From Anaerolineales bacterium (GTDB lineage Bacteria > Chloroflexota > Anaerolineae > Anaerolineales > E44-bin32), in contig JARRPX010000005.1 of the NCBI GenBank assembly GCA_037382465.1, forward strand, positions 6,224-70,223: a stretch of DNA of 64,000 bases, read 5' to 3'. Of the stretch, positions 5,990 to 29,010 are shown in pieces. The notes under the pieces are model-generated. The model made no database searches and had not been told where the DNA came from. It worked only from the letters and a program-made list of their open reading frames with translations. The translations under genes and the position numbers were made by a program. Within the stretch, counting starts at the first letter, position 1. Each line of letters opens with the position of its first letter.

Positions 5990-6874
5990 ATGCACATCGG
6001 ATTACAAATTCCGTCTTTCAAGTATCCTGGCGGTACGGCCGCTATCCGGCCCAAACTGAAAGAAATCGTCACAACGGCGGAAGAATCAGGTTGTTACAGC
6101 CTCTGGGTGATGGATCATTACTATCAAATCAAGGGATTGTTCGGAGAAGCCTACACCGATCCGATGCTGGAAAGCTATACCACGCTCGGATTTTTTGCTG
6201 GCCTAACCGAGAAAGCCTATCTCGGTGTGTTGGTAACGGGCGTTATCTACCGCCATCCCTCCGTTCTGATGAAGATGGTCAACACGCTCGACATACTCTC
6301 CGGCGGCCGTGCTTATCTCGGCATCGGCGCGGCATGGTACGAAGATGAAGCAAAAGGCTTCGGCATCCCCTACCCTTCTACCTCAGAGCGCTTCGAGCAA
6401 CTGGAGGATACTTTAAGATTGGCAAAGGCGCTCTGGGATAGCGATCAGACATCCTTTGAGGGCAAGCATTTTTCTGCGCCGGCGATAACCAACAATCCCC
6501 GCCCGCTCTCAAAACCGCATCCGCGCATCATGGTGGGCGGCACGGGGCCGAAGAAGACGCTGCGAATGGTCGCGCAATATGCAGACGCCTGCAATATCGG
6601 GGATTGGGTGGGCACGGAAAACATGCAAAAAGCACTCGACATACTTAAAGAACATTGTGAAACTCTGGGACGTGATTACAACACAATCGAGAAGACATGC
6701 CTCTGCACGGTGCATCTTTCCGGGGACGATACTGCAGACAGCGTTGTAAGTCGTATCGAGGAACTCTCCGGGATGGGCTTCACGCACGCGATATTCAATA
6801 TGCCGGATGTTTACGAAATCACACCGCTCGCAACCTTTGCAAGAGAGATTATCCCGGCGGCGGCAGATCTCTAA
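5990..6874 (+). CDS. LLM-class (luciferase-like) F420-dependent oxidoreductase
   Basis: AAGGAG RBS before the ATG. Start MHIGLQIPSFKYPGG..., then SLWVMDHY, GRAYLGIGAGW-type segment (GRAYLGIGAAWYEDE) and HPRIMVGGTGPKKTLRMVAQYADACN, typical of the Rv1855c-type LLM family. Confidence 0.8.
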   Translation: MHIGLQIPSFKYPGGTAAIRPKLKEIVTTAEESGCYSLWVMDHYYQIKGLFGEAYTDPMLESYTTLGFFAGLTEKAYLGVLVTGVIYRHPSVLMKMVNTLDILSGGRAYLGIGAAWYEDEAKGFGIPYPSTSERFEQLEDTLRLAKALWDSDQTSFEGKHFSAPAITNNPRPLSKPHPRIMVGGTGPKKTLRMVAQYADACNIGDWVGTENMQKALDILKEHCETLGRDYNTIEKTCLCTVHLSGDDTADSVVSRIEELSGMGFTHAIFNMPDVYEITPLATFAREIIPAAADL

Positions 6875-15087: not shown

Positions 15088-16047
15088 ATGACAGAAGCGC
15101 AAAAAGTAGCAAATGCTATCCGCGCCGCCCGGATGTACTATTACCAAAATCTCACCACCGGTGTGATTGCGAAGGAAATGAACGTTTCCCGCTCGACGAT
15201 ATCCCGGCTGCTGGGTTTTGCCAGATTAAAAGGGCTGGTGGATATCCGGATCATTGAACCGACGGATCTGCCTGATCGGCTGGCCAATGCTTTGGTCGAT
15301 GAATTTGGCATTGAGAAAATCCACGTTGTACATGCCCCCGAAATCGCTGGAGAGGCGGAATGGCTGGAAAGGGTTGCCCAATATACGGCAAACTATCTCA
15401 ACACGAAATTTGATTCCAACATGATCTTGGGTATCGCCTGGGGTACCACCATGACGGCCATTTCAAAGCATCTGCTGCGAAAAACGACCCATAACAGCCA
15501 GATCGTACAGCTGAACGGGGCCGGGAATACCCAGTCCATGGGCATCGGTTACGCCAGCCAGATTATTATGCGGTTTTCTGACAATTATCGGGCGCGGGCC
15601 CATTTATTTCCTGTGCCCACATTCTTCGATTATGCGGAAACCAAACAAGCATTGTGGCGGGAGGGAAGCATCAGGCGCATCCTGGATTTGCAATCCAAGA
15701 CGGATTTATTGTTGTACAGCATCGGGGCGGTCAATGCCGGAATTCCAAGCCATGTGTACAGCGGCGGCTACCTGACGGAAGTAGATTACAAGGAATTAGA
15801 AAAATACAATATCGCGGGTGATATTGCCACGGTATTCTTCAAAGAGGATGGCAGCTTTGAAAATATTCCCATAAACAAAAGGGCCAGCGGACCAAACTTG
15901 GGATTATTCCAACAGAAACACGGGATTTGTGTCGTCTCAGGATTGGCCAAAGTAAAAGGACTCTATGCGGCACTCAAAGGAAAACTGATGTCTGAGTTGA
16001 TAGTTGATGAACCTACCGCCAGAAAATTGGTGGATAGTTATCTATAA
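15088..16047 (+). CDS. SorC/DeoR(Bsu)-family sugar-binding transcriptional regulator
   Basis: N-terminal HTH AARMYYYQNLTTGVIAKEMNVSRSTISRLLGFARLKGLVDIRI followed by a SorC-type sugar-phosphate-binding domain (GIAWGTT, VQLNGAG). Confidence 0.9.
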   Translation: MTEAQKVANAIRAARMYYYQNLTTGVIAKEMNVSRSTISRLLGFARLKGLVDIRIIEPTDLPDRLANALVDEFGIEKIHVVHAPEIAGEAEWLERVAQYTANYLNTKFDSNMILGIAWGTTMTAISKHLLRKTTHNSQIVQLNGAGNTQSMGIGYASQIIMRFSDNYRARAHLFPVPTFFDYAETKQALWREGSIRRILDLQSKTDLLLYSIGAVNAGIPSHVYSGGYLTEVDYKELEKYNIAGDIATVFFKEDGSFENIPINKRASGPNLGLFQQKHGICVVSGLAKVKGLYAALKGKLMSELIVDEPTARKLVDSYL

Positions 16048-16167: not shown

Positions 16168-17172
16168 CTAGGGACGTCGTTTGCGGAGTTGATCGAGCAT
16201 GATCGCGGTTACGATGACCAAACCCTGTACGGCTTGCAGCCAGTAGGCCGAGACACCAACGAGCACCAGGCCGTTGCGCAGCACCTGCATCACCACGGTT
16301 CCAATCAGTACGCCCAGGATTGTACCTTCTCCACCCATGAGGCTGGTGCCGCCGACTACCGCAGCGGCGATGACATCCAGTTCATAGCCGTACGCAGCCG
16401 TAGGCGCAGCTACGCCCAGGCGCGCCGTCATGAGCACACCGCCGATAGCAGTAAGCAGCCCACACAGAGAATAAACCATGATCTTGACACTATCCGTGTT
16501 GATGCCGGAGAGGCGCGTGGCCGTCTCGCTGCCTCCGACGGCGTATATTCGGTAACCCCAAACGGTCCGGTTAAGGAATACTGCAGAGATCGTGGCGAAG
16601 ACGAGAGTGAAGATGAGTGGTAAAGGTACGCCGATTGTGCCAATGGGAATATCGTGCTGTCCGAGATACCGGAAAGAGGGGTCTAATTCACGTACCGGCC
16701 AACCGCCCGTTAATCCGTAACAAAGTCCGCGAGCCATGAGCAGCGTGCCTAGCGTAGCGATAAATGGGGGCAGTTTACCCTTGGTAATCATCAAGCCATT
16801 CGCAATCCCGACCAACAAACCTGCCACCAGACCCCCGATCACCGCGACCGGGACGGGTATCCCCTCAGCCAACAGCATGGCGCTGGCCAGGCCCGAAAGG
16901 CCCATGACTGAGCCTACGGATAGATCAATCCCGGCAGTGATGATCACCATGCATTGCCCGAAGGCGCTGAGCGCGATCCAGGAGAACGCCCGCAGGATAT
17001 TGAATATATTCGTGCTGGTGAGAAAAGTGTCGGTGTAAAGCGAGAGAAATACCACCAAGACCAATAAAATCAGCGCCACACCGAATTCTTGCCGGCCGAC
17101 GATCCTTCGCCAGGTAGTTCCGCGAGCCCGTATCTGGATATCTTCGCTCCTTGCCGTGTTTATGGTGCTCAC
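16168..17172 (-). CDS. CUT2 (ribose-type) sugar ABC transporter permease
   Basis: RbsC-like: [76 protein letters not shown]. Overlaps the upstream ATPase gene by 4 nt. Confidence 0.9.
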
Positions 17173-18782
17173 GTTGTTTCTCCTTTCGGCGCGCCCTCCG
17201 AGATAATGTCGTTATCCAGTTCTCCGCTTGCGTAGGCGATGATTCGTTCTTGTGTGGCATCCTTGCGGTCTAAAATTGCCGCAACTCTTCCTTCCGACAT
17301 CACCAGGACTCGATCGCTCATTCCCAGGATTTCCGGCAGCTCGGATGAGATCATGATGATGCCGATTCCCGAGGCCGCCAATTTACTCATCAACGCATGG
17401 ACCTCGGCCTTCGCGCCGACATCGATACCGCGCGTGGGTTCGTCCATGATCAAGATTTTGGGATCCGAGGCCAACCACTTGGCGAGGACCACCTTCTGCT
17501 GGTTGCCGCCGGAGAGGAACATCGCCTTCTGCTCTAAATAGGGCGTGCGGATGCTCAGTTTGTCGACATACTCCTGAGCTGTTTCCCGAATCGCACCCTG
17601 CTGAACCCAACCGAAACTGGCATGTTCTCCAAGCGTCGGCAGAACGATGTTCTCCGAAACGGCCATCCTGAGGACGAGTCCTTGTAACCCACGGTCCTCG
17701 GGAACCAGCCCAATACCAGCTCTTACGGCGTCGACGGGGGAACGAATGTTCAACGGGACGCCTTGGAACAGGATTTCTCCAGCTTCCTTTCGATCAGCGC
17801 CGAAGATCAAGCGCGCTGTTTCCGTTCGTCCGGCGCCAACGAGGCCGGCGAAACCCAGGATCTCGCCTTTATGTAGGGTGAAACTCACGTCTTTGACCTG
17901 ATCCCCGCCCGTCAAGCCCCGTACTTCCAACAGCGGCGCTCCGATCTCCGCCTCCTTCTTCTGGAACATGTCCGCCACCAACTCGCGGCCCACCATCAAG
18001 TGAATGATCACTTCGGTCGTCGCCTCTTGGATCGATAAACCGCCCACAAACCTGCCGTCCCGCAGGACCACAACGCGATCGGCGATGCGGAACACCTCTT
18101 CCAGGCGGTGTGTGATAAAGATGACGGCAATGCCTTGTTTTTTCAATGATTCGATAATGCCGAATAATGTATCAACTTCATCCTCACCCAGCGCCGAAGT
18201 GGGCTCGTCCATGATGATGATACGGGCATCAACGGCCAAGGCCTTGGCAACTTCGACCATTTGTTGTGCGGCGACGGATAAATCCTGGATGAGCGTGGAA
18301 GAAGATATTCGTGCGCCAACGCGCTCCAGATACATCTGTGCTTCTTTTTCCATCCGACGACGATCGACAAAGTTGAGGATCCGTCCCACGCCGCGCTCGC
18401 GAGGTTCGCGAGTGATGAAGATGTTCGCCGCCGCACTTTGATTGGGAGTCAGGTTGAATTCCTGGTAGATGATAGAAATGTTTAATTCCTGTGCGTGATG
18501 TGGGTTTTCGATCTCGATCTCTTTTCCGTCCAGCAAGATCTTCCCGGAATCTTTCCGGTATGCCCCACAGAGGATTTTCATCAACGTCGATTTTCCGGCC
18601 CCATTTTCACCAACGAGCGCAACGACTTCACCAGCCGCGACTTCAAAATCTACATTTTTCAACGCCTGGACCCCGGGGAATGCCTTGGATATGTCCTTCA
18701 TCACGAGTAAGGATTCTTGTTTTTCGGGCAAGGTGTACTCCAATATCGGGGGTTGTGGTGCGGGGTTATCCCCGCACCACAA
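17169..18782 (-). CDS. Sugar ABC transporter ATP-binding protein with two fused NBDs (RbsA-like); the exact start is uncertain
   Basis: GENGAGKST Walker [12 protein letters not shown] Walker B and ITHRLEE H-loop in NBD1; [17 protein letters not shown] and [11 protein letters not shown] in NBD2. Confidence 0.92.
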
Positions 18783-18866
18783 ATTGTTTGGATAATGTAT
18801 CAGGCATAGATGCTTATCGCAACGTTGCTCCAGGTAACGACTGCAACGAGCACCTCAGCCCAACAC

Positions 18867-19910
18867 TCATTCCAAACATGCGTAAGGATCGGGCAGATCT
18901 TGGGTGAAGTCGCTCGATGCCCACATCTCGGCCATGACGTCCACGTTGCACTCGGTCACGATGTCCATGCCGGAGTCGGTCCAGTCATCGTACGTGGCGC
19001 CGGAGACGATGTAGTCGTAGATCATCTGCACCGTGTCGTAGCCCCAGCCCCAGTATTTCTGTCCGACCAGGCCCTGGATGTAGCCGTCCTGCATGAACTC
19101 CAGCTGCACCGGCAGCGTGTCGAAAGCGATGGTGACCAGGCCGTTGTTCAGCGCCGCGTCCTCCCAGAGAGGCATAGAGCCGCGCTCGGCGAACAGCGGC
19201 CACAGGCCAACCAGGAACCAGCCATCCAGGTCGGGATGTGCCTGCATGGTTTCCTCGATCACCTGCACGCCCAGGTTGATGTCGTCGTTGCAGTAGACGG
19301 TCGAGACGATCTCGATGCCGGGGTAGTCGGCCACGCCGTCCTGGAAGCCGCGGATGCGCTCCTCCAGGTTGAAGGCGCCGGGGACGCCGGTCAGCAGGGC
19401 CACTTTGCCTTCCTCGCCCATGAATTTCACGAGCAACTCGGCAGCGGCCAAACCGCCCTGGTAGTTGTCCACGCCCAGGTAGGTGAAGCGGTCGCTGTCC
19501 GGAGAGTCTGAATCCCAGGTCATCACGGGGATGCCGGCGGCGACGGCCTTGTTGATGGGGTCTTCGCAGGCGGTCGGATCGTTGCAGGAGATGCCGATGG
19601 CGTCGACGCCCTTGGCGATCACGTCTTCCATGACCCGGGTTTGCTCAGCAGCATCCGAGGCCACGGAACCCACGTAATCGACGGTCACATCGACGCCGGT
19701 CGAGGCGCTCAGCTCTTCGGCTTTCTTGAAGGCGCCATCGCGCCCGACCTCGAAGACCGGGTTGTTCAACGCCTTGGGGATCCAGGCGATGGTCAGCGAT
19801 TCTAATCCGGCATCGCTGGGCGCTTCGGTTTTCTTCGCACACCCTGCCAATGCAGCGACGAGAATTATAGCGAGGGCAATTATCACGAAAAGATAGGTCT
19901 TTCTCCGCAT
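18867..19910 (-). CDS. Sugar ABC transporter substrate-binding lipoprotein (periplasmic binding protein type I, RbsB-like)
   Basis: Signal peptide plus lipobox [24 protein letters not shown] and FDTLP resemble ribose/galactose-type binding proteins. First gene of the SBP-ATPase-permease operon. Confidence 0.85.
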
Positions 19911-20348
19911 CTCTTCCTCCTTGGGTAAAGAGACTTTAGATTACTCACCGAGTACGACGATCATAAAGGACTCTTCCACCTCCTTAATATAATATTTTCA
20001 AAGCGGAACTCGAAATTGGATGTGTTTCGGAAAGCCTCTCGGCCCGGGTATCGTGAGCGGATGTACATAGTGTATAGAATCGATGCGCGGGCATCAATGC
20101 CTGTACCCCCAATAGAGGCATGGGATAACTCATGCTTTATGCGTAGGATATCCCCTTTCCTCCCATATACTCGGCTTTATAACTGCGTCTCATCCGTGAT
20201 TTCAGGCTATACTGCAAGGGAAATAGGCTGTAGGCTGCGGGATGAGAAATCCCCCAAGAACCTTCGTTCGATCCATATTCATCTTGTCTTCCATCCGCTT
20301 AATCCTGAAGGTTTGACGATATGACCTATACATTAGTAGAATGGAAAC

Positions 20349-21401
20349 ATGGCCGAGGTCCGCATTATTCTGGCTGATGATCATGCCATCGTACGCGCAG
20401 GTATCCGCAATGCGCTGCAAGAGATGGATGATCTGGTAATCGTCGCCGAAGTGGGCGACGGTCCTTCACTTTTCAAAGCACTGTCGGAGACAGAGGCGGA
20501 TTGCGTTTTAATCGATGTCACGATGCCAGACTTCGATCCCATTCCTTCCATAGAAAAAATCCGCTCTCGCTATCCGGTGATGAAGGTTCTTGTCGTCAGC
20601 GCCTATGACGACGACTTCTATGTACAGGGTCTGCTGGGGGCCGGGGTTAATGGATATCATCTCAAGGATCAACCGCTTAGCGATCTGCGTCTGGCTGTAC
20701 AACGTGTGCTGGACGGCGGACGGTGGTTGTCCGGATCGTTGATCGATAAATTGATCAGCTACGGGGAATCGACCGTTCAGGCGCCAGCCCTGACCACCCG
20801 TCAGCGCGAGATCTTGAGATTTCTGCAGCAAGGGTTGGACAATCAATCCATCGCGCGTGAAGCCGGATTGAGTGTCGGCACTGTCGAAAACCATCTCACC
20901 CGTATTTACCGGCAGCTCAACGTGCAGAGTCGGTTGGAAGCGGTACGCTTTGTGATCGACCATCCGGAGGTGCTTGCCTCACCCGGCCAAGCAGCTGTGG
21001 ACGGCGCGAGTTTTCCCGAGATCCCTGCCGGAGAGGGGATTACGTTATTGCTGGTGGACGATAATGCACGCTACCGCTGCGAACTACGTCGTATGATCGG
21101 CCGGGTGTGCCCCCATGCTTTAGTTTACGAAGCTGAGAACACGCGTGAAGCGGTGAATTTAGTTGAACGTGTGACCCCACAATTGGTATTCATCGATGTC
21201 ATTTTACGGGAAGAAAACGGTATCAGTTGTTTGCGCCGCATCAAGGCGATCTCGCCACAATTGCGCGTCGTCCTGATCAGCGCCTATCCGGATCGGGAGT
21301 TCCACAAGTCGGGTGTGGACGCCGGCGCCATCGCTTTCATCGACAAGAAAAATTTGGACGCTGATACGCTGCATCAGATGATAAGTGATGTCGTTTTATA
21401 G
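20349..21401 (+). CDS. Response regulator with REC - LuxR/NarL HTH - second REC architecture
   Basis: REC1: ILADDH...VLIDVTMPD...VVSAYDD...GYHLKD. HTH: LTTRQREILRFLQQGLDNQSIAREAGLSVGTVENHLTRIYRQL. REC2: LLVDDN...VFIDVIL...VLISAYPD...AFIDKK. Confidence 0.9.
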   Translation: MAEVRIILADDHAIVRAGIRNALQEMDDLVIVAEVGDGPSLFKALSETEADCVLIDVTMPDFDPIPSIEKIRSRYPVMKVLVVSAYDDDFYVQGLLGAGVNGYHLKDQPLSDLRLAVQRVLDGGRWLSGSLIDKLISYGESTVQAPALTTRQREILRFLQQGLDNQSIAREAGLSVGTVENHLTRIYRQLNVQSRLEAVRFVIDHPEVLASPGQAAVDGASFPEIPAGEGITLLLVDDNARYRCELRRMIGRVCPHALVYEAENTREAVNLVERVTPQLVFIDVILREENGISCLRRIKAISPQLRVVLISAYPDREFHKSGVDAGAIAFIDKKNLDADTLHQMISDVVL

Positions 21402-21443
21402 CGGATCAAGATCTCCCAGACGCTGTACTCCTTCTCGAATACT

Positions 21444-22469
21444 TTGGTGTTGGATCAAGTGGTTATGCAGTTGCCAGCGAAGTTGAATAATTCTCTCTCG
21501 TTGAGTTCGATCGTTCGGTTCTGGCGTCACTTGGTCCAGCGACGTGAATTTGCGGTATTGTTGCTGTTTCTCATCCTCTGCACTCTCTTAAGCCTGCTGA
21601 CAGATACCTTTCTCACTTTCGACAATTTATCGAACCTCGCCCGCAACTTTTCCTGGATCGCGATCATCGCCTTCGGTCAGAGCATGGTGATCATTATTGG
21701 TGGTCTCGACATGTCTGTAGGTGCGACGATGGCGTTGGCCGGCCTCATCACCGCATATTGTATGGACGAGAATATCGGCCTGCCGGTGGGTGTTGCCGTG
21801 ACCTCGGGGCTTTTCGTCGGAGTTCTCGTTGGATGGATTAATGGTTTCATGATCGCTCGCGCGAAGCTTCCATCCTATGTCGTCACCCTGGGCACGATGA
21901 GCGTGGTGCGGGGCATTGCGTTCAGCCTGACAGGCGGCTGGCCGGTACGCAATCTGCCGGAGAATTTTCGTGTTATCGGCCAACACGAGATTCAATTCGG
22001 TTCGTGGGGAATTCCGGTGCCGTTCCTGTTGACGGTGATGACGGCGCTTGTCGTAGGTTTGTTGCTCGATAAAATGGTGTTGGGCAGGTACGTTCATACA
22101 CTCAACCGGGGCGAGCGGGCGCTGCTTCTGGCCGGCGTCAACGTTAACCAGGTCACCACGCTGGTTTACACGCTCTGCGGACTTCTGGCGGCATTTGGAG
22201 GAATAGTCATGACCGCGCGTCTGGGAGTCGCTGCTCCCACCGCGGCAAGCGGGTACGAACTGGACAGCATCGCCGCTGCGGTCGTTGGCGGCACCAGCTT
22301 GTATGGAGGCGAAGGCAGTATCGTGGGTGTGTTGCTTGGCGGTGCCGTACTCCAAACCGTGCGGAATGGACTGGTCCTGCTGGGCTTTCCCGCCTACGGA
22401 CACACCGTCGCCGTAGGCGCAATGATCCTGGCGGTCATCCTATTGAACTACTGGCGACGTAAACACTAA
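21444..22469 (+). CDS. CUT2-type ABC permease, close paralogue of 16168..17172 (alternative ATG at 21465)
   Basis: FSWIAIIAFGQSMVIIIGGLDMSVGATMAL and [44 protein letters not shown] are nearly colinear with the permease of the neighbouring importer. Confidence 0.9.
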   Translation: MVLDQVVMQLPAKLNNSLSLSSIVRFWRHLVQRREFAVLLLFLILCTLLSLLTDTFLTFDNLSNLARNFSWIAIIAFGQSMVIIIGGLDMSVGATMALAGLITAYCMDENIGLPVGVAVTSGLFVGVLVGWINGFMIARAKLPSYVVTLGTMSVVRGIAFSLTGGWPVRNLPENFRVIGQHEIQFGSWGIPVPFLLTVMTALVVGLLLDKMVLGRYVHTLNRGERALLLAGVNVNQVTTLVYTLCGLLAAFGGIVMTARLGVAAPTAASGYELDSIAAAVVGGTSLYGGEGSIVGVLLGGAVLQTVRNGLVLLGFPAYGHTVAVGAMILAVILLNYWRRKH

Positions 22470-22479
22470 GACGAGAGAC

Positions 22480-24075
22480 ATGACGCAGTTATTGAAGGCG
22501 ATCGACATCTCGAAAAGCTTCGGCACCTTACCGGTCATCCGGAATGTGAGCCTGGAAATTTCGCCCGGCGAAGTCGTGGGCATTGCCGGACAGAGCGGAG
22601 CCGGGAAATCTGCATTGACCATGCTGCTCACAGGCTTTTTGACTCCCGACGAAGGCAAGTTGTTCCTTGAAGGGCAGCAACTGCGCTGGCCGTTCAACGG
22701 ACGGGCTCTCGGAATCGAGGTTATCCATCAACACCCAGATTTGGCTGAAGACCTCGACGTCAGCAGCAACGTATTTCTGGGAAATGAAATTGGATGGTCG
22801 TTGGGGGATGATTGGCTCAAATTCCCCAATCGGCGGCGAATGGCCAAGGAGACGGTCCGTATCCTGACGCAATTAGGGGCCAACCTCGAGGACCCACACG
22901 AGATCGTTGCCAATCTTTCGAGCGAGCAACGTCAATTAATTGCGATAGCTCGCGTAATGGTCAATCCATCGAAGTTGATCATCGTTGACAATCCGACGCT
23001 TGCGCTCAGCTATCCATACCAGCACAAACTCCTATCGCTCATCGAAAGCTGGCAGCAGCAGGGAATCGCCGTCCTGATCAACAGCGACAACCCCGATCAC
23101 TTGTTGGCAGTTACCGACCGTATCATCGTTCTGCGGAACGGGCGCTGCGACAACGAGTTCCAAACCGACGACACGAATCGTGAAGAGGTGGTCGCTGCGA
23201 TGGTGGGAACCATCGACCGTCAACAGCTCACGCCAATCCTCTGGGCGCTGGACAGCTATTATCGTGCTCGTGAGCAGGCTGAAAAGCTGTCCCAGCGACA
23301 GGCCATGCTCGAAAAGGGCCTGGCTTCGGGAGAAATGATCAATCGACAGTTCATCAGCCAGTTGGCCAATCAAATCGACGCGCTGGACCAGGTTAACGCG
23401 GCGCTGCAAAACGCACAGCGCCGCTTGTTGACCGAACTCGAGCAGGAACGCAAAGGCCTGGCGCGCGAAATCCACGATCAGGTAATCCAGGATATGTTGG
23501 GAGTGAATTATCGCCTGGAGGAAATTGAATCCTATGATAATTTGGCGCCCGCGGTAAGAAACGAGCTGTCCAGCCTGCAAGACAGAATTCGCACGCTGGT
23601 GGACGACTTGCGCGATATCTGCGGCAACTTGCGCCCGCCGACAATCGACAGTTTGGGTCTGGGACCGGCCATTGGTTCGTACGCGAGAGATTGGACCAGG
23701 CGATCCGGAATCCCGGTGACCCTGGATATTGATCCCGAGCTTGGGCGCTTGCCGGAAGCCATCGAGTTGTCGATCTTCCGCATCGTGCAAGAGGGGTTGA
23801 ATAACGTGCACAAGCATTCCGGCGCCAGCGAATCCAGAGTCGAACTACGGCGCACCCTGCCGCGCACATTGATGCTCTCCGTATCTGATAATGGACAGGG
23901 CGTTGACGGCGATTTCGATCTAACCATGCTGCCCGAAAGCGGCCACTATGGACTGTTGGGCATCAGCGAGCGGGTGGTGCTGTTGGGTGGGCGGCTTAAA
24001 TTGCAGAATAATGAAGACGGCGGCTTGCTGCTCCAGGTTGAGATCCCCCATCCCCGATTGGAAATGACTACCTAG
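22480..24075 (+). CDS. Fusion protein: single ABC nucleotide-binding domain (degenerate catalytic motifs) - coiled-coil linker - NarL-class histidine kinase (HisKA_3 + HATPase_c)
   Basis: Walker A GQSGAGKS (22588..22611). Signature-like LSSEQ (22915..22929). Walker B LIIVDN (22975..22992). Q/E/L-rich linker. H-box AREIHDQVIQD (His codon 23473..23475). EGLNNVHKH, SDNGQG and GHYGLLGISERV are the kinase ATP-lid motifs. Confidence 0.85.
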   Translation: MTQLLKAIDISKSFGTLPVIRNVSLEISPGEVVGIAGQSGAGKSALTMLLTGFLTPDEGKLFLEGQQLRWPFNGRALGIEVIHQHPDLAEDLDVSSNVFLGNEIGWSLGDDWLKFPNRRRMAKETVRILTQLGANLEDPHEIVANLSSEQRQLIAIARVMVNPSKLIIVDNPTLALSYPYQHKLLSLIESWQQQGIAVLINSDNPDHLLAVTDRIIVLRNGRCDNEFQTDDTNREEVVAAMVGTIDRQQLTPILWALDSYYRAREQAEKLSQRQAMLEKGLASGEMINRQFISQLANQIDALDQVNAALQNAQRRLLTELEQERKGLAREIHDQVIQDMLGVNYRLEEIESYDNLAPAVRNELSSLQDRIRTLVDDLRDICGNLRPPTIDSLGLGPAIGSYARDWTRRSGIPVTLDIDPELGRLPEAIELSIFRIVQEGLNNVHKHSGASESRVELRRTLPRTLMLSVSDNGQGVDGDFDLTMLPESGHYGLLGISERVVLLGGRLKLQNNEDGGLLLQVEIPHPRLEMTT

Positions 24076-24520: not shown

Positions 24521-25534
24521 ATGCCAACAGTTCTTGATGTAGCCAAGCGTGCAGGTGTCGCACCGATCACGGTTTCTCGGGTGATCAATAACTCGGGCTA
24601 TGTCAGCCAAGCTACTCGGGAGCGTGTCGAAGCAGCGGTCAAGGAGTTGGGATATGTTCCCAACACGCTGGCTCGCGGACTCCGCTCGAAACAGACGAAG
24701 ACTCTGGCGCTGGTCGTCACGGATATCACCAACCCATACTTTACTTTGATGGCCAGAGGGGTTGAGGACGCGGCGGGGATCTCCGACTATACGGTCGTTT
24801 ATTGCAATACGGATGAATCTGAAGCAAAGGAAGAAAAATATGCCAATCTATTGGCCCAGCGGCAGGTAGACGGCGTGCTATTGGTTCCTTCGTGTGGGAA
24901 TGTAAAGACGATCAAGTTCTTGCTCTCGAACGACATCAACGTTGTGGCGCTCGATCGCCGCGTTTCGGGCGTCAAAATCGATTGTGTACGCTCTGACTCG
25001 GAAAATGGCGCCTGTCGATTGATCGAGTTGCTCATCGGACTGGGGCACAAACGGATCGCTACAATTACCGGACCCAAAGATGTTTCAACTTCAGTCGACC
25101 GTGTAGCTGGCTATCGGCGAGCATTGGTCGAATCGAGCTTGGCGGAATACGAGCAAGTTCATTATGGGATGTTCAACCAGGAGAGTGGCTACAAATTCAC
25201 CAGGCAGGTGATGATGCATTCGCCAAAGCCGACGGCCATATTTGGTGCCAACAACTATATTGCGATTGGGATTATTAAAGCTTTGCGTGATCTCGAGTTC
25301 GATGTGCCTGGCGACGTCTCTGTTGTCGCATTTGATGATTTTCCCGAATCGATGCTCCTGGCGCCTTTTTTAACCATTGCTTATCAGCCAGCCTACGAGA
25401 TGGGGCAAATGGCGACTGAAATGTTGCTGAAACGTATTTCAGGTGAAATTACTGGAGAATGTCAAAACTTGGTATTGCCTACCGAAATCATCGAACGCGA
25501 ATCGGCTGGCCCAATCTGGAATAGAAGCAGGTGA
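24521..25534 (+). CDS. LacI-family transcriptional regulator
   Basis: MPTVLDVAKRAGVAPITVSRVINNSGYVSQATRERVEAAVKELGYVPNTLARGLRS is the canonical LacI HTH plus hinge. It is followed by a PBP type I sugar-binding core. Confidence 0.95.
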   Translation: MPTVLDVAKRAGVAPITVSRVINNSGYVSQATRERVEAAVKELGYVPNTLARGLRSKQTKTLALVVTDITNPYFTLMARGVEDAAGISDYTVVYCNTDESEAKEEKYANLLAQRQVDGVLLVPSCGNVKTIKFLLSNDINVVALDRRVSGVKIDCVRSDSENGACRLIELLIGLGHKRIATITGPKDVSTSVDRVAGYRRALVESSLAEYEQVHYGMFNQESGYKFTRQVMMHSPKPTAIFGANNYIAIGIIKALRDLEFDVPGDVSVVAFDDFPESMLLAPFLTIAYQPAYEMGQMATEMLLKRISGEITGECQNLVLPTEIIERESAGPIWNRSR

Positions 25535-25562
25535 CACTGGGAAGCGTATATTTTTATCTCGT

Positions 25563-25580
25563 TGTGGTAACGTTACCACA
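25563..25580. promoter_or_regulatory. LacI-family operator (18-bp perfect palindrome) upstream of the ABC importer genes
   Basis: tgtggtaacgttaccaca contains the same GGTAACGTTACC core as the site at 24455..24466. Confidence 0.6.
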
Positions 25581-25779
25581 TTGCTCTTCGATCTCGTAAT
25601 CTGGGAAGAGGCTAGGTGTTGATGGCGCAACAAAGCAGCGACAATTCCATCCCGGGGATTCCATTTTTACACTGCCGGCCCTTGTCAGTATTGAACGGTC
25701 AGCTTTCGTGTCGTTGGTGGAGTGATTCATTTCCTTGTCGGCAAGAGAGTTTTGTAGCTCGAAACTCAAGGAGATTGCG

Positions 25780-26574
25780 ATGAAACCCAAAACAGAAGCC
25801 ACGCCCATTGTGGAAATGCGGCATATCAAGAAGAGCTTCGCTGCCGTCCGGGCGCTGCGCGGCGTAGATCTGACACTGCACGAGAATGAGGTGTTGGGGT
25901 TGGTGGGCGACAACGCCGCGGGTAAATCCACATTGATGAAAGTTCTCAGTGGCGCCTACATCCCTGACGGTGGAGAAATCTTCATCGAAGGTAAGAAAGT
26001 GCATTTTAACAATCCGTTGGATGCGCGCCAAATGGGGATCGAGATGGTTTACCAGGATTTGGCCCTGGTCAACCACCTGAGTGTGGCAGCCAATGTTTTT
26101 CTTGGACGGGAAGAGATGTCCGTACAAATGGGTTTGTTTGGCGTGATCGACCAGCGTCATATAGAAGAAGAGACGCAGCGCCTGCTCGATCGTCTCAAGA
26201 TTGACATCTCCTCCGTACGCTTGGGTGTGGAACGACTTTCAGGTGGCCAGCGTCAAGCTGTGGCCATTGCCCGGGCGACGGCGTTCAACGCCAAGGTCAT
26301 CATCATGGATGAGCCTACGGCGGCTTTGAGTGTGGCGGCTATTGACAAGGTGCTCGATCTGGTGCGGGAGCTCAAGACGCAGGGTTGTTCGATCATCATC
26401 ATCAGCCACCGCCTGGAGGACATATATCGGGTGAGTGAGCGAATGGTGGTGCTGCGTCACGGGCGCAAAGTCTGCGATTATCCCGTCTCTGGTGACATTC
26501 ATGATTTCCGCGAGCGGGTGGTCGCTTACATCGTTGGCGCCCGAAATGATTTTCCCGAGGCAGAAGTTGATTGA
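25780..26574 (+). CDS. Sugar ABC transporter ATP-binding protein, single NBD (FrcA-like)
   Basis: AAGGAG RBS (25767..25772) 7 nt before ATG 25780; the ORF-track start at 25735 is probably too long. [26 protein letters not shown] and ISHRLED are all canonical. Confidence 0.92.
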
Positions 26575-26599
26575 TGCGCGTGAAGGAAAGGGTGCTTTC

Positions 26600-26803
26600 A
26601 TGATCTCCTCAAACGCGCTGGAGACGTTTGGCATGATGTATTGCTCTGCGGTTCTTCTCACGGGAGATCTAACGACGGTTCGCGGCCGTGTTGAAACGAC
26701 GCCGATTGAAGTACTCAATCCTGCCACCGGACCGGCCTCGTTAGTGAGAGTCGGCGTAGCGGCGACTGATAAAGGGCCAAACAAAAGGAAAGAGCAGCCA
26801 TGA
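26600..26803 (+). CDS. Possible 67-aa small ORF filling the ATPase-permease gap (hypothetical)
   Basis: ATG preceded by GAAGGAAAGGG. Its stop overlaps the permease start as ATGA (26800..26803). No recognisable motif, so this rests on position only. Confidence 0.25.
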   Translation: MISSNALETFGMMYCSAVLLTGDLTTVRGRVETTPIEVLNPATGPASLVRVGVAATDKGPNKRKEQP

Positions 26804-27810
26804 GCGAGATATTAACGGAACAAATTAGCAGGGATGATGCAGTTCGCGCCGGGGAGGCAGCCGTGAATCGCGGCTTGGCTGTGGACAGGTTCATTCGCTT
26901 ATTTGCAGTTGCTGTGTTGTTTACTATCTTCTCAATAACGGCCAGGAACTTCTTTACCGTCCGAAGCATTCTCACGCTTGCCTTGCAAACCAGCACGATC
27001 ACCCTCATGGGTATCGGTGTGACCTTCACGATCATCACGGGCGGTATCGATCTCTCTATCGGATCGATCGTTGCCCTGTCCGGCACCATCGCCGTGATGG
27101 TTGCCCTTGAAGGAGTCCCCATCTGGCTCAGCATGATCGTCGGGCTGCTTGTCGGAGTCGTGAGCGGTCTCATCAACGGACTGATGATCACCAAAATGAA
27201 GCTGCCTCCGTTCATCGCAACGCTCGGCATGATGATGGTTGCCAGAGGGGTTGCGCTTACGATTACGAATGCAAATGCAAAGCCGGCGCCTGAAGGGTTC
27301 GGTGAGTTGGGCAACGGCACCATTCTGGGGACCGGACCGGAATTCCCGGGTCTATCCTACCCGCTGTTGATCATGATCGCAGTGGCGTTCGTCTTTCATT
27401 TCATTCTCGCGAAAACGCGGCTCGGAAGGTACACCTACGCCGTGGGGTCGAACGAAGAGGCGGCACGGCTCGCCGGGATCAAGATCCATCAGGTTAAAAT
27501 CATCAATTACATTTTCTGCGGCCTGCTTACGGCATTGGTCGGCATCATCCTCGCCTCCCGCATGATCACATCCCAACCCAACAGCGCAATTGGCTACGAG
27601 ATGAACGCCATTGCTGCCGCCGTCATCGGCGGCACAAGCCTCATGGGTGGCGTAGGCACAGTAGCAGGGACGGTGATCGGTTCTTTCATCATCGGCATAT
27701 TAACCGTGGGACTCACGATGCAGGGTGCAAATTATTTCATGCAGCAGATCGTTATCGGGCTCGTGGTTATCGGCGCAGTAACAGTCGACCGACTCAGAAA
27801 CCGAAAGTGA
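26800..27810 (+). CDS. CUT2-type sugar ABC transporter permease
   Basis: [42 protein letters not shown] and [19 protein letters not shown] resemble RbsC/FrcC. Confidence 0.9.
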   Translation: MSEILTEQISRDDAVRAGEAAVNRGLAVDRFIRLFAVAVLFTIFSITARNFFTVRSILTLALQTSTITLMGIGVTFTIITGGIDLSIGSIVALSGTIAVMVALEGVPIWLSMIVGLLVGVVSGLINGLMITKMKLPPFIATLGMMMVARGVALTITNANAKPAPEGFGELGNGTILGTGPEFPGLSYPLLIMIAVAFVFHFILAKTRLGRYTYAVGSNEEAARLAGIKIHQVKIINYIFCGLLTALVGIILASRMITSQPNSAIGYEMNAIAAAVIGGTSLMGGVGTVAGTVIGSFIIGILTVGLTMQGANYFMQQIVIGLVVIGAVTVDRLRNRK

Positions 27811-27948
27811 GAGACGAAGGATCGCGATATCGGACTCCCCACTTTGTTCATGTCTCGAGAGGAGGTGCTCGCTTCATACTGATGAAAATTCGGCAACGCT
27901 ACTACGATCCGTTCTATGAACCGACTATTTCGAAGGAGAAGAGATAAT

Positions 27949-29010
27949 ATGAATAAGAAACTGTTCGCTCTAACAAGCCTTCTCATGGTCATTTCTCTCG
28001 CCTTGGCAAGCTGCGGCGCTCCGGCGACTGCGGAAGTCATCGAGAGAGAAGTTGAGGTGACGAAGATCGTCGAAGTAACCTCCGCCCCCGCTGCAGTGGT
28101 AGAAGAGGGTGGGGAGATTGCGGTCATCGTCAAGACGGGCAACTCCAGCTTCTGGCAGAATGTGCAGACTGGGGCAATGGACGCCCAGAACGAGCTTCAG
28201 GATAAGACTCCCAAGCTCTCGGTCACCTTCCTTGGAGCCCAGTCAGAGAGCAACATCAACGAGCAGATCAACATCGTCGAGAGCGCAATCGATCGCGGCG
28301 TGAAGGCGATCGTGCTTGCGCCCTCAGATACCCAGGCTCTCATCCCGGTGGTAGAGAAGGCAAAGGCTGCCGGCATTCCTGTGGTCATCATCGACTCGCT
28401 GCTCGAAGGCCCGGAAGATAACTACGTATCATTCCTTGCGACCGACAACTATGCAGCAGGAGAAGCTTGTGCCAAGAGGCTGATCGAGGAAGTAAAGGCC
28501 AACACGGGCGGCGATAGCGGCAATATTGCCGTTATGTCTTACGTTGCCGGCGTGGGCTCCGAGATTGGCCGCGTGGGTGGCTTCAAGGATTACATCGCGG
28601 CGAACTCGAATCTGGAGGTCGTCACGACTCAGTACTCCAACGCCGACATGCCCACCGCACTCGACCAGACGACGAATGTGCTGCAAGCAAACCCAGATCT
28701 GGTGGGTATCTTCGGCGCCAACGAGCCGACCGCCATTGGTATGGGCCGCGCGATCGAGCAAGCAGGCCTTGCAGGGACGATTGCCGCGATTGGCTTCGAT
28801 GGCAATAGTGTCCTGGCAGAAATGGTCAGAAACGACACGCTGCAGGCCATTGCCGTTCAAAGCTCCTATAACATGGGCTACTTGGGCGTCATGACTGCCT
28901 ATGCCGTTGCCTTTGAAGGCGAGACGGTTGACCACTATGTCGACACTGGCTTCATCATGGTCGACAAGGACAACATCGATTCTCAGGATGCTCAGAACGT
29001 GCTCTACTAG
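27949..29010 (+). CDS. Sugar ABC transporter substrate-binding lipoprotein (PBP type I)
   Basis: GAAGGAG RBS. MNKKLFALTSLLMVISLALASCG is a lipoprotein signal. IAVIVKTGNSSFWQNV, VKAIVLAP and IGFDG resemble RbsB. The ORF-track start at 27916 is probably too long. Confidence 0.88.
   Translation: MNKKLFALTSLLMVISLALASCGAPATAEVIEREVEVTKIVEVTSAPAAVVEEGGEIAVIVKTGNSSFWQNVQTGAMDAQNELQDKTPKLSVTFLGAQSESNINEQINIVESAIDRGVKAIVLAPSDTQALIPVVEKAKAAGIPVVIIDSLLEGPEDNYVSFLATDNYAAGEACAKRLIEEVKANTGGDSGNIAVMSYVAGVGSEIGRVGGFKDYIAANSNLEVVTTQYSNADMPTALDQTTNVLQANPDLVGIFGANEPTAIGMGRAIEQAGLAGTIAAIGFDGNSVLAEMVRNDTLQAIAVQSSYNMGYLGVMTAYAVAFEGETVDHYVDTGFIMVDKDNIDSQDAQNVLY

Follow-up and report, generated by a model that had tools for sequence, protein, structure and literature searches.

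The stretch of DNA analyzed here, called the window throughout, comprises 64,000 nt of contig JARRPX010000005.1 of an Anaerolineales bacterium (positions 6,224 to 70,223 of the forward strand; assembly GCA_037382465.1). It contains two divergent operons, a CUT2 importer on the minus strand and a two-component sensor module with a permease of its own on the plus strand. The best-supported reading, to which we assign a probability of roughly 60%, is that the binding protein of the importer, encoded by sbpA, would be shared by the sensor, which lacks its own. An initial annotation of the window had proposed that this protein docks on both the transporter and the sensor, and comparison with related loci, including in-operon and fused binding-protein genes and the status of sbpA as the sole gene of its family, lends strong support to that proposal.

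The window genes were defined by calling of open reading frames (ORFs) and by Pfam and NCBIfam scans, and similarities were quantified by blastp. The two operons comprise the following features:

16168..17172, minus strand: permA, CUT2 importer permease of the pA family (Pfam BPD_transp_2, PF02653, E 1e-43)
17169..18782, minus strand: RbsA-like ATPase with two fused ATP-binding domains (two ABC_tran)
18867..19910, minus strand: sbpA, binding protein (Peripla_BP_4, PF13407, E 3e-63) with a lipoprotein signal and the lipobox LAGC
19911..20348: divergent intergenic region, 438 bp
20349..21401, plus strand: response regulator, REC-GerE(LuxR HTH)-REC (PF00072 twice, PF00196)
21444..22469, plus strand: permS, sensor permease (BPD_transp_2)
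22480..24075, plus strand: kinase of 531 aa with ABC_tran, a coiled linker, HisKA_3 (PF07730, 323-387), and HATPase_c (PF02518, 429-524)

The gene coordinates of the initial annotation were all confirmed, and the gene calls bear out its statement that the sensor operon is devoid of a binding-protein gene: neither the ORF calls nor the Pfam scans revealed one in 20349-24075. The divergent region, which it had given as 437 bp, is one nucleotide longer. The importer (16168-19910) has the full set of CUT2 components, namely, a BPD_transp_2 permease, a two-domain ATPase, and a Peripla_BP_4 lipoprotein. Its ATPase matches the XylG, RbsA, and AraG models of NCBIfam with about 544 bits, all below the equivalog cut-offs. 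The permS gene is translationally adjacent to the kinase gene, with a gap of 11 bp. In a whole-genome search, sbpA was the sole sbpA-family gene in the window's genome.

Binding-protein genes at sensor and importer loci

The window proteins were mapped onto 80 kinase loci (denoted by L numbers) from species-representative genomes of Anaerolineae, Caldilineae, Chloroflexia, Thermoflexia, and Ardenticatenales. In the following, RR stands for the regulator, pS for the sensor permease, sA for the sbpA family, sX for a second binding-protein family, and pA and A2 for the importer permease and the two-domain ATPase. These layouts were observed:

RR, pS, sA, kinase, with sA inside the sensor operon: at least 12 loci, e.g., L011, L026, L045, and L074
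pS::sA as a single ORF of about 710 aa: L014:7859-9991, L015:4073-6211, L017:2748-4865, and L078:3162-5306
pA, A2, sA divergent from RR, pS, kinase: the window, L020, L040, L075, and L005/L101, as well as L028 with a gap at the sA position
pS with a divergent sX binding protein and without sA: 8 loci
kinase without its own permease, co-operonic with a complete importer: 23 loci

When sA is part of the sensor operon, it lies between the permease and the kinase gene, and the operon is often flanked, before or after, by a different complete importer. The layout of L005/L101 is that of the window, with the A2 ATPase and pA at the far end. Six sensor loci include a pA importer, and in five of them (the window, L020, L028, L040, and L075) the sensor operon contains no binding-protein gene. 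The sixth, L062, is a single operon of the order A2-pA-pS-sA-kinase with one binding-protein gene. The 23 loci with permease-less kinases carry no sbpA-family gene.

In the pS::sA fusions, the permease ends in its cytoplasmic C-terminus (..LDYWRRE), to which about 30 residues of basic linker, a hydrophobic helix, and the mature binding domain are appended in this order. The helix is the former signal peptide, which has lost the lipobox Cys and has been kept as an extra membrane anchor. Pfam detects BPD_transp_2 and Peripla_BP_4 together in a single protein. The predicted join is topologically sound, and the arrangement is a Rosetta-stone fusion.

A single sbpA-family locus was found in 17 of the 18 genomes that have both the kinase and an sbpA-family gene, and in 14 of the 18, pA is absent and the sensor permease is the only one of the two present. 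The importer-adjoining sbpA-family genes of the window's genome, L020, L040, L075, and L101 were the only ones in whole-genome searches. The genome of L062 has a second copy, which was considered as the importer's own binding protein and rejected; it forms the second, C-terminal half of an sX::sA tandem, which belongs to another importer operon and adjoins an orphan regulator.

These genomes had been selected for the kinase, and they gave the impression that the sbpA family belongs only to the sensor. This was overturned by a class-wide sample of 301 Anaerolineae genomes. About 28 of them have a pA-type permease (at least 62% identity), and about 18 of these have an sbpA-family gene (at least 73% identity) but no kinase, with pA usually about 3 kb away on the same contig. 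Therefore, the importer is an independent, widespread system.

Taken together, the sensor alone has its own binding protein, and the importer alone has its own binding protein. On contigs that hold both, the two are always adjacent and have one binding-protein locus, which heads the importer operon except in L062. This presence of only one locus when sensor and importer occur together is the main comparative argument for a shared binding protein.

The sbpA-family proteins group tightly (support 99-100), and a long stem leads to their clade. The window sbpA lies inside an importer-type subclade (26 rows, support 100), and its sisters are binding proteins of free-standing importers from genomes without the kinase. 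The sensors' own binding proteins of relatives form a neighboring grade and are 54-69% identical to sbpA; other binding proteins are at most 33% identical. The closest solved structures (5hqj and 2h3h/3c6q) were all deposited merely as sugar-binding proteins.

Several further observations were made on this family and its importers. Tandem binding lipoproteins with two or three domains are encoded at L075:5576-7537, L040:5428-7476, L020:5457-6557, L092:3123-6080, L101:8073-11030, and L087:62-2083, in the arrangements sA::sA (halves 98.6-99.7% identical), sX::sA, and sX::sA::sA. In some loci, e.g., L091, L092, and L095, the gene lies between two different importers, one with a permease and a single-domain ATPase and the other with a two-domain ATPase and pA, and therefore, one polypeptide may serve two transporters. 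The contexts of three metagenomic pA proteins comprised six contigs and were uninformative on the binding-protein gene, as four of these contigs (L081, L082, L083, and L085) stop at the ATPase gene or immediately 5′ of it; that they end at the position of the binding-protein gene would be explained by near-identical tandem binding domains that defeat assembly. The genes 3′ of pA in free-standing importers (L081:3032-8738, L083:4239-6916, and L085:4033-6691) include those for a GFO/IDH/MocA oxidoreductase, an FGGY kinase, a PfkB kinase, a TIM barrel of the xylose-isomerase-like kind, or proteins of the SIS and ROK families, which hints at a sugar or polyol as the transported compound. CUT2 ATPases, 853 aa in length and with about 350 aa of unassigned sequence inserted between both ATP-binding domains, are encoded at L021:7360-9921, L025:13129-15690, and L076:14106-16667.

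Permease paralogy and the proposed docking face

The window contains a third, LacI-controlled system (24521-29010) with a single-domain ATPase (25735-26574) and a permease, permC. The permA and permS proteins are 52% identical over 315 aa (E 1e-101), while permC is 40% identical to permA and 34% identical to permS. In the whole genome (3.7 Mb, 95% complete), the best paralogue of permS is permA (53%), the next being at most 37% identical, and the two are mutual best paralogues. The initial annotation had described permS as nearly colinear with permA and, by eye, much less similar to permC, in agreement with these values. The sequence motifs it listed as shared are present, with one correction: permA reads MVIITAGID and not MVII.GG.D.

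In phylogenetic trees, the sensor permeases form a single clade of 42-44 rows from about 44 Chloroflexota loci (Shimodaira-Hasegawa-like approximate likelihood ratio test support 99-100), which is monophyletic across Anaerolineae, Caldilineae, Chloroflexia, and Thermoflexia. When free-standing importers were added, the pS clade branched among the pA-type importer permeases, and the joint clade had a support of 97. Thus, the sensor permease is a paralogue of that of the adjoining transporter, and the trees did not show the placement far from its neighbor that the initial annotation had named as speaking against its proposal. The pS and pA families are each other's closest relatives among CUT2 permeases. 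The remaining CUT2 permeases, including permC and those of importers beside sensors in other lineages, are far from both. A search with permS of a library of representatives at 50% identity was too coarse to separate pS from pA.

The closest relative of permS is the sensor permease of L002 (77% identity). The closest relatives of permA are permeases of free-standing sbpA-ATPase-permease importers in Anaerolineae genomes without the sensor (78-84%). As each of the two is closer to orthologues elsewhere, the duplication is ancient and not local, and on the tree topology the split between pS and pA is older than the spread of pS across the Chloroflexota classes. The initial annotation had regarded the sensor as a duplicated copy of the adjacent importer; this is contradicted, as far as a local or recent event is meant, by the trees of the permeases, the binding proteins, and the ATP-binding domains. 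The permease resemblance is real, but by this phylogenetic evidence it marks ancient paralogy rather than a local copy.

Next, consensus sequences of 42 pS, 36 pA, and 27 other CUT2 permeases were placed on a topology of 10 helices. An AlphaFold2 model of permS (mean predicted local distance difference test score 91.8) has 10 long helices, which were read as membrane helices, and their boundaries agree with the topology that was used. The identities between the pS and pA consensus sequences were as follows:

outside loops: 67%
membrane helices: 68%
cytoplasmic loops: 40%

The identity to the other CUT2 permeases was about 30% in every region class, and the outside loops of pS are conserved as strongly as its membrane helices. 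The long outside loop 3, which includes ..FR.LGQ, is a joint signature of pS and pA and is the same motif that had been spotted in the initial annotation. It becomes GW-SVTN.P..FL in the pS subclade of the sX-carrying loci and also in the fused forms, the loci of which carry sX, too. This suggests that outside loop 3 may vary with the binding protein that is the partner. For the coupling (EAA) loop, pA shares the sequence IYAVGGNE.A..LSGI with other importers, and pS has IY.L..SERALLVSGV; the pS-specific version fits a putative different partner among the ATP-binding domains.

Kinase, regulator, and operator

The window kinase is not a membrane-spanning kinase with a periplasmic ligand-binding domain. 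It has no membrane segment (the maximum hydropathy over 19 aa is 1.18), and its sequence opens directly with the ATP-binding domain. This domain shares 33% and 25% identity with domains 1 and 2, respectively, of the neighboring ATPase and 36% with the third-system single-domain ATPase. In trees, the kinase ATP-binding domains form their own clade (support 100) and group with single-domain CUT2 ATPases (support 84-95), among them the third-system ATPase of the window. Domain 1 of the neighboring ATPase clusters with the ATPases of pA-type importers, apart from the kinase domain. The initial annotation had likened the fused domain to this domain 1, which holds as a general family resemblance, but the closest kinship is with the single-domain lineage. 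The trees of binding proteins, permeases, and ATP-binding domains therefore describe the sensor as a mosaic, with the permease and the binding protein apparently stemming from the sA-A2-pA importer family and the ATP-binding domain from the single-domain ATPase lineage.

The sensor module has neither the catalytic Glu after Walker B nor the LSGGQ signature that are expected for hydrolysis. In the kinase, Walker B is followed by Asn (LIIVDNPT), the signature motif is LSSEQRQ, and the family consensus has D-D at the Walker B position. As the catalytic Glu is absent, ATP hydrolysis by this domain is probably impossible. The H-box histidine H332 is invariant in the kinase family and retained in the window, as are the other family-invariant residues. 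A HisKA_3 and HATPase_c kinase together with a receiver and GerE regulator characterizes a NarL/UhpA-type two-component system, although the regulator has an extra C-terminal receiver domain compared with that type; the NCBIfam UhpB match to the kinase (99 bits) lies under the cut-off. More than 2000 homologues of the fusion kinase were found, and the named ones are from Chloroflexota.

In about 35 of 57 relatives, a palindrome, TAGGGG-AWWT-CCCCTA, is present upstream of the regulator gene, usually with a spacing of about 55-60 bp to the extended -10 element, TGGTATAAT, that follows it. Exact copies of this family operator number 31 in 1.15 Mb of loci and are nearly all intergenic. They lie 5′ of regulator genes and, in many loci, also directly 5′ of the binding-protein gene of the adjacent importer; example positions are L040:7844, L041:11624, L056:11620, and C4:87388 in the window's own genome. 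This placement supports the view that the regulators may control the adjacent CUT2 importer in relatives. In the window, one promoter-like element was detected 5′ of the regulator gene:

20313..20342, plus strand: TTGACG-18-TAGAAT, 10 of 12 consensus matches

The nearest other species is represented by L002, the kinase of which is 81% identical to that of the window. In L002, pS and kinase are divergent from an sbpA gene of the importer type (88%). Neither an ATPase nor a permease of an importer was found within 10 kb, and the whole assembly yielded no pA-type permease. The ratios of nonsynonymous to synonymous substitution rates (dN/dS) between the window and L002 were 0.06 for sbpA, 0.11 for permS, and 0.06 for the kinase, with dS near saturation. 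Thus, the three genes are under purifying selection, and part of this history may have passed without the importer. At L002:8720-8940 the regulator gene is internally deleted, leaving an in-frame remnant that consists of the first 45 or so codons followed by roughly the last 25. The promoter (as TTGATG..TAGAAT), the sensor permease, and the kinase are intact despite the loss of most of the regulator gene, and a paralogous regulator is encoded elsewhere in that genome.

A second, paralogous module is present in the window's own genome on contig C4 (80299-90063). Its minus strand encodes an importer (binding protein, two-domain ATPase, and permease) and then a permease, a single-domain ATPase, and an sX binding protein. 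These genes are followed by the canonical operator (its only copy in the genome), a REC-HTH-REC regulator with 61% identity, and a split fusion kinase, which consists of two ORFs of 174 and 306 aa and lacks residues corresponding to about 174-231 of the ATP-binding domain of the window kinase. Within the window, a SorC-type sugar-phosphate regulator (Sugar-bind, PF04198, plus helix-turn-helix) is encoded at 15088-16047 (plus strand), convergent with the end of the importer operon.

Proposed mechanism, alternatives, and known systems

We propose that sbpA, the two-domain ATPase, and permA would constitute a working CUT2 sugar importer, and that the receptor would be a permS dimer carrying a dimer of the soluble fusion of ATP-binding domain and kinase. 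The receptor permease would be of the same importer family as permA, and the receptor's own sbpA-family gene, which most relatives have, would be missing in the lineage of the window. The sugar-loaded sbpA lipoprotein would dock on the outer face of permA for import and of permS for signaling. From permS the signal might pass via the permS-specific coupling helix to the ATP-binding domain, and opening or closure of the domain pair would alter the activity, kinase or phosphatase, that acts on the REC-HTH-REC regulator. As judged from relatives, the module would act on transcription, both that of the adjacent importer and that of the sensor operon itself.

A more general proposal is tentative, and we give it somewhat less than an even chance. 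It states that Chloroflexota possess widespread receptor kinases that are converted ABC importers, in which the binding protein senses, the permease paralogue transduces, and a hydrolysis-dead domain is the input of the kinase. The binding protein would be swappable between the receptor and the importer ancestral to it, and a single lipoprotein, in some cases with two or three binding domains in tandem, would feed both transport and signaling. Sharing would then range from none (own binding protein, even fused) via the binding protein (the window) to the binding protein plus the permease (kinase beside an importer).

Several points weigh against a shared binding protein or against parts of the proposed mechanism. 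The canonical operator was not found in 19911-20348, where the best match has 3 mismatches, which equals the background frequency in the window. This match is a degenerate operator-like half-palindrome:

20144..20157: TAGGATATCCCCTT, 3 mismatches to TAGGGG-N-CCCCTA

It overlaps a block, GTAGGATA.CC.CT (20142-20158), that is conserved with L002 among other intergenic blocks and is weak evidence for an operator. The recognition helix of the window regulator (about residues 175-190) reads LSVGTVENH, with Gly at a position at which Lys (LS(V/I/A)KT(V/I)E(N/K)H) is present in every relative caught by a pattern search (27 loci), and this change coincides with the loss of the canonical operator. Therefore, the output arm is uncertain, and drift of the module is conceivable. 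The proposal of the initial annotation that the regulator controls the importer is thus backed by operator placement in relatives but not by the operator and regulator of the window itself. Regarding the docking face, the inside/outside topology is our own model, based on hydropathy, the AlphaFold2 helices, the cytoplasmic EAA loop, and the positive-inside rule, and no solved CUT2 permease structure that would fix it was found by sequence. In L020, L028, and L040, loop 3 of pA (TNGQ-PVRGFP) is noticeably unlike loop 3 of the pS from the same locus, and the similarity of outside loops and helices could reflect common ancestry and not a common docking partner. The single-domain sbpA could be a collapsed assembly, given that importer binding-protein genes of relatives often have two or three tandem domains. 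Lastly, the roots disagree within the permease and the binding-protein trees, and therefore, the direction of descent (pS from pA or the reverse) is not fixed.

An alternative that we regard as unlikely is that the sensor needs no binding protein, because permS itself binds the sugar or an intracellular or membrane cue is perceived, and that the adjacency reflects co-regulation only. The absence of a binding-protein gene from the sensor operon would fit, as would the 23 kinase loci without their own permease or an sbpA-family gene, which show that the family can be wired several ways. However, at all loci with enough flank but one (L069, upstream not resolved), the sensor permease is accompanied by an sbpA-family or sX gene, be it in the operon, fused, or divergently adjacent. 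In addition, four independent fusions of permease and binding protein argue that docking is intrinsic to pS, and the conservation of the pS outside loops equals that of the membrane helices.

The same 23 loci also bear on flux sensing in the manner of BceAB-BceS, in which the kinase would dock on permA or exchange with the ATPase there, and permS would be an accessory or alternative dock. A kinase that has no permease of its own and is co-operonic with a complete importer of binding protein, ATPase, and permease must use the importer's permease or none. In the window, however, a dedicated permS gene adjoins the kinase gene, and the clade-specific coupling loop of permS is unlike the canonical EAA loop of permA, which implies a specific pairing of pS with the kinase. 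We consider flux sensing improbable for the window.

Little probability was likewise given to a decaying sensor module that has lost its binding protein, its operator, and the DNA-contacting lysine and resembles the importer for historical reasons only. The missing operator, the K-to-G change unique among relatives, the internal deletion of the regulator gene in L002, and the split second kinase on C4 would all be in line with decay. Nevertheless, all ORFs of the module are intact, the family-invariant kinase residues including H332 are retained, dN/dS versus L002 is 0.06-0.11 for sbpA, permS, and the kinase, the near-consensus promoter is conserved upstream, and the paralogous regulator (61% identical) could receive the signal. 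Finally, a recent in situ duplication of permA into permS, with the fused domain copied from domain 1 of the neighbor, has in its favor the adjacency and 52% identity of the genes, but it was given almost no credence and is refuted by all three trees: permS and permA are closer to permeases elsewhere (77% in L002 and 78-84%, respectively), pS is monophyletic across four classes, and the kinase domain groups with single-domain ATPases (support 92-95).

Sharing of sbpA between transport and signaling would have precedents in part. In Agrobacterium, ChvE is shared between the VirA sensor and the GguAB/MmsAB sugar importer; in the window, too, one Peripla_BP_4-class protein would serve an ABC importer and a two-component sensor. 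Transporter paralogues act as receptors that control a transporter gene in E. coli (UhpC/UhpT with UhpB-UhpA) and in yeast (Snf3/Rgt2 and Ssy1), and these are MFS or APC secondary carriers without a binding protein and without kinase fusion. The window kinase and regulator are of the UhpB/UhpA (HisKA_3/NarL) type, but the receptor would be a three-part ABC assembly. ChvE is the closest case of a shared binding protein and UhpC/UhpT the closest receptor derived from a transporter paralogue. In BceAB-BceS, PstSCAB-PhoU-PhoR, and MalK-MalT, an ABC transporter assembly also feeds a transcriptional switch, but there the transporter has kept its transport function and communicates with a sensor that is a protein of its own, whereas in the window the ATP-binding domain is covalently the input of the kinase, is devoid of the catalytic Glu, and is paired with a permease copy dedicated to it. 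The fusions of permease and binding domain and the tandem lipoproteins in relatives of the window are reminiscent of GlnPQ and OpuA. These belong to other ABC importer families, and their fused binding domains serve transport; the fusions of the window family, in contrast, involve a CUT2-type sensor permease.

Sensor kinases stimulated by binding proteins have been reviewed, namely, LuxP-LuxQ, TorT-TorS, XylFII-LytS, and GltB-GtrS, in which periplasmic kinase domains bind the protein, and none of them receives its signal through a permease paralogue and a fused ABC ATP-binding domain (PMC8050422). VirA, LuxQ, TorS, and LytS are membrane-spanning with a periplasmic domain, whereas the window kinase is soluble, its proposed dock is the permease paralogue, and the signal would pass through the fused domain. 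A full-text literature search turned up no descriptions of kinases with a fused ABC ATP-binding domain or of Chloroflexota receptors that are permease paralogues.

If the proposed reading is true, signal transfer across the membrane would use the conformational cycle of an ABC importer and not a helical-bundle sensor domain, and one binding protein would serve transport and transcription via two paralogous membrane docks. For the annotation of related genomes, this would mean that, when a sensor operon lacks a binding protein, a sister-family importer should be looked for next door. The sensor family offers natural intermediates, with separate, fused, shared, and absent binding proteins, that make the model testable, and the permease::binding-protein fusions and the conserved operator are direct handles for reconstitution and reporter assays.

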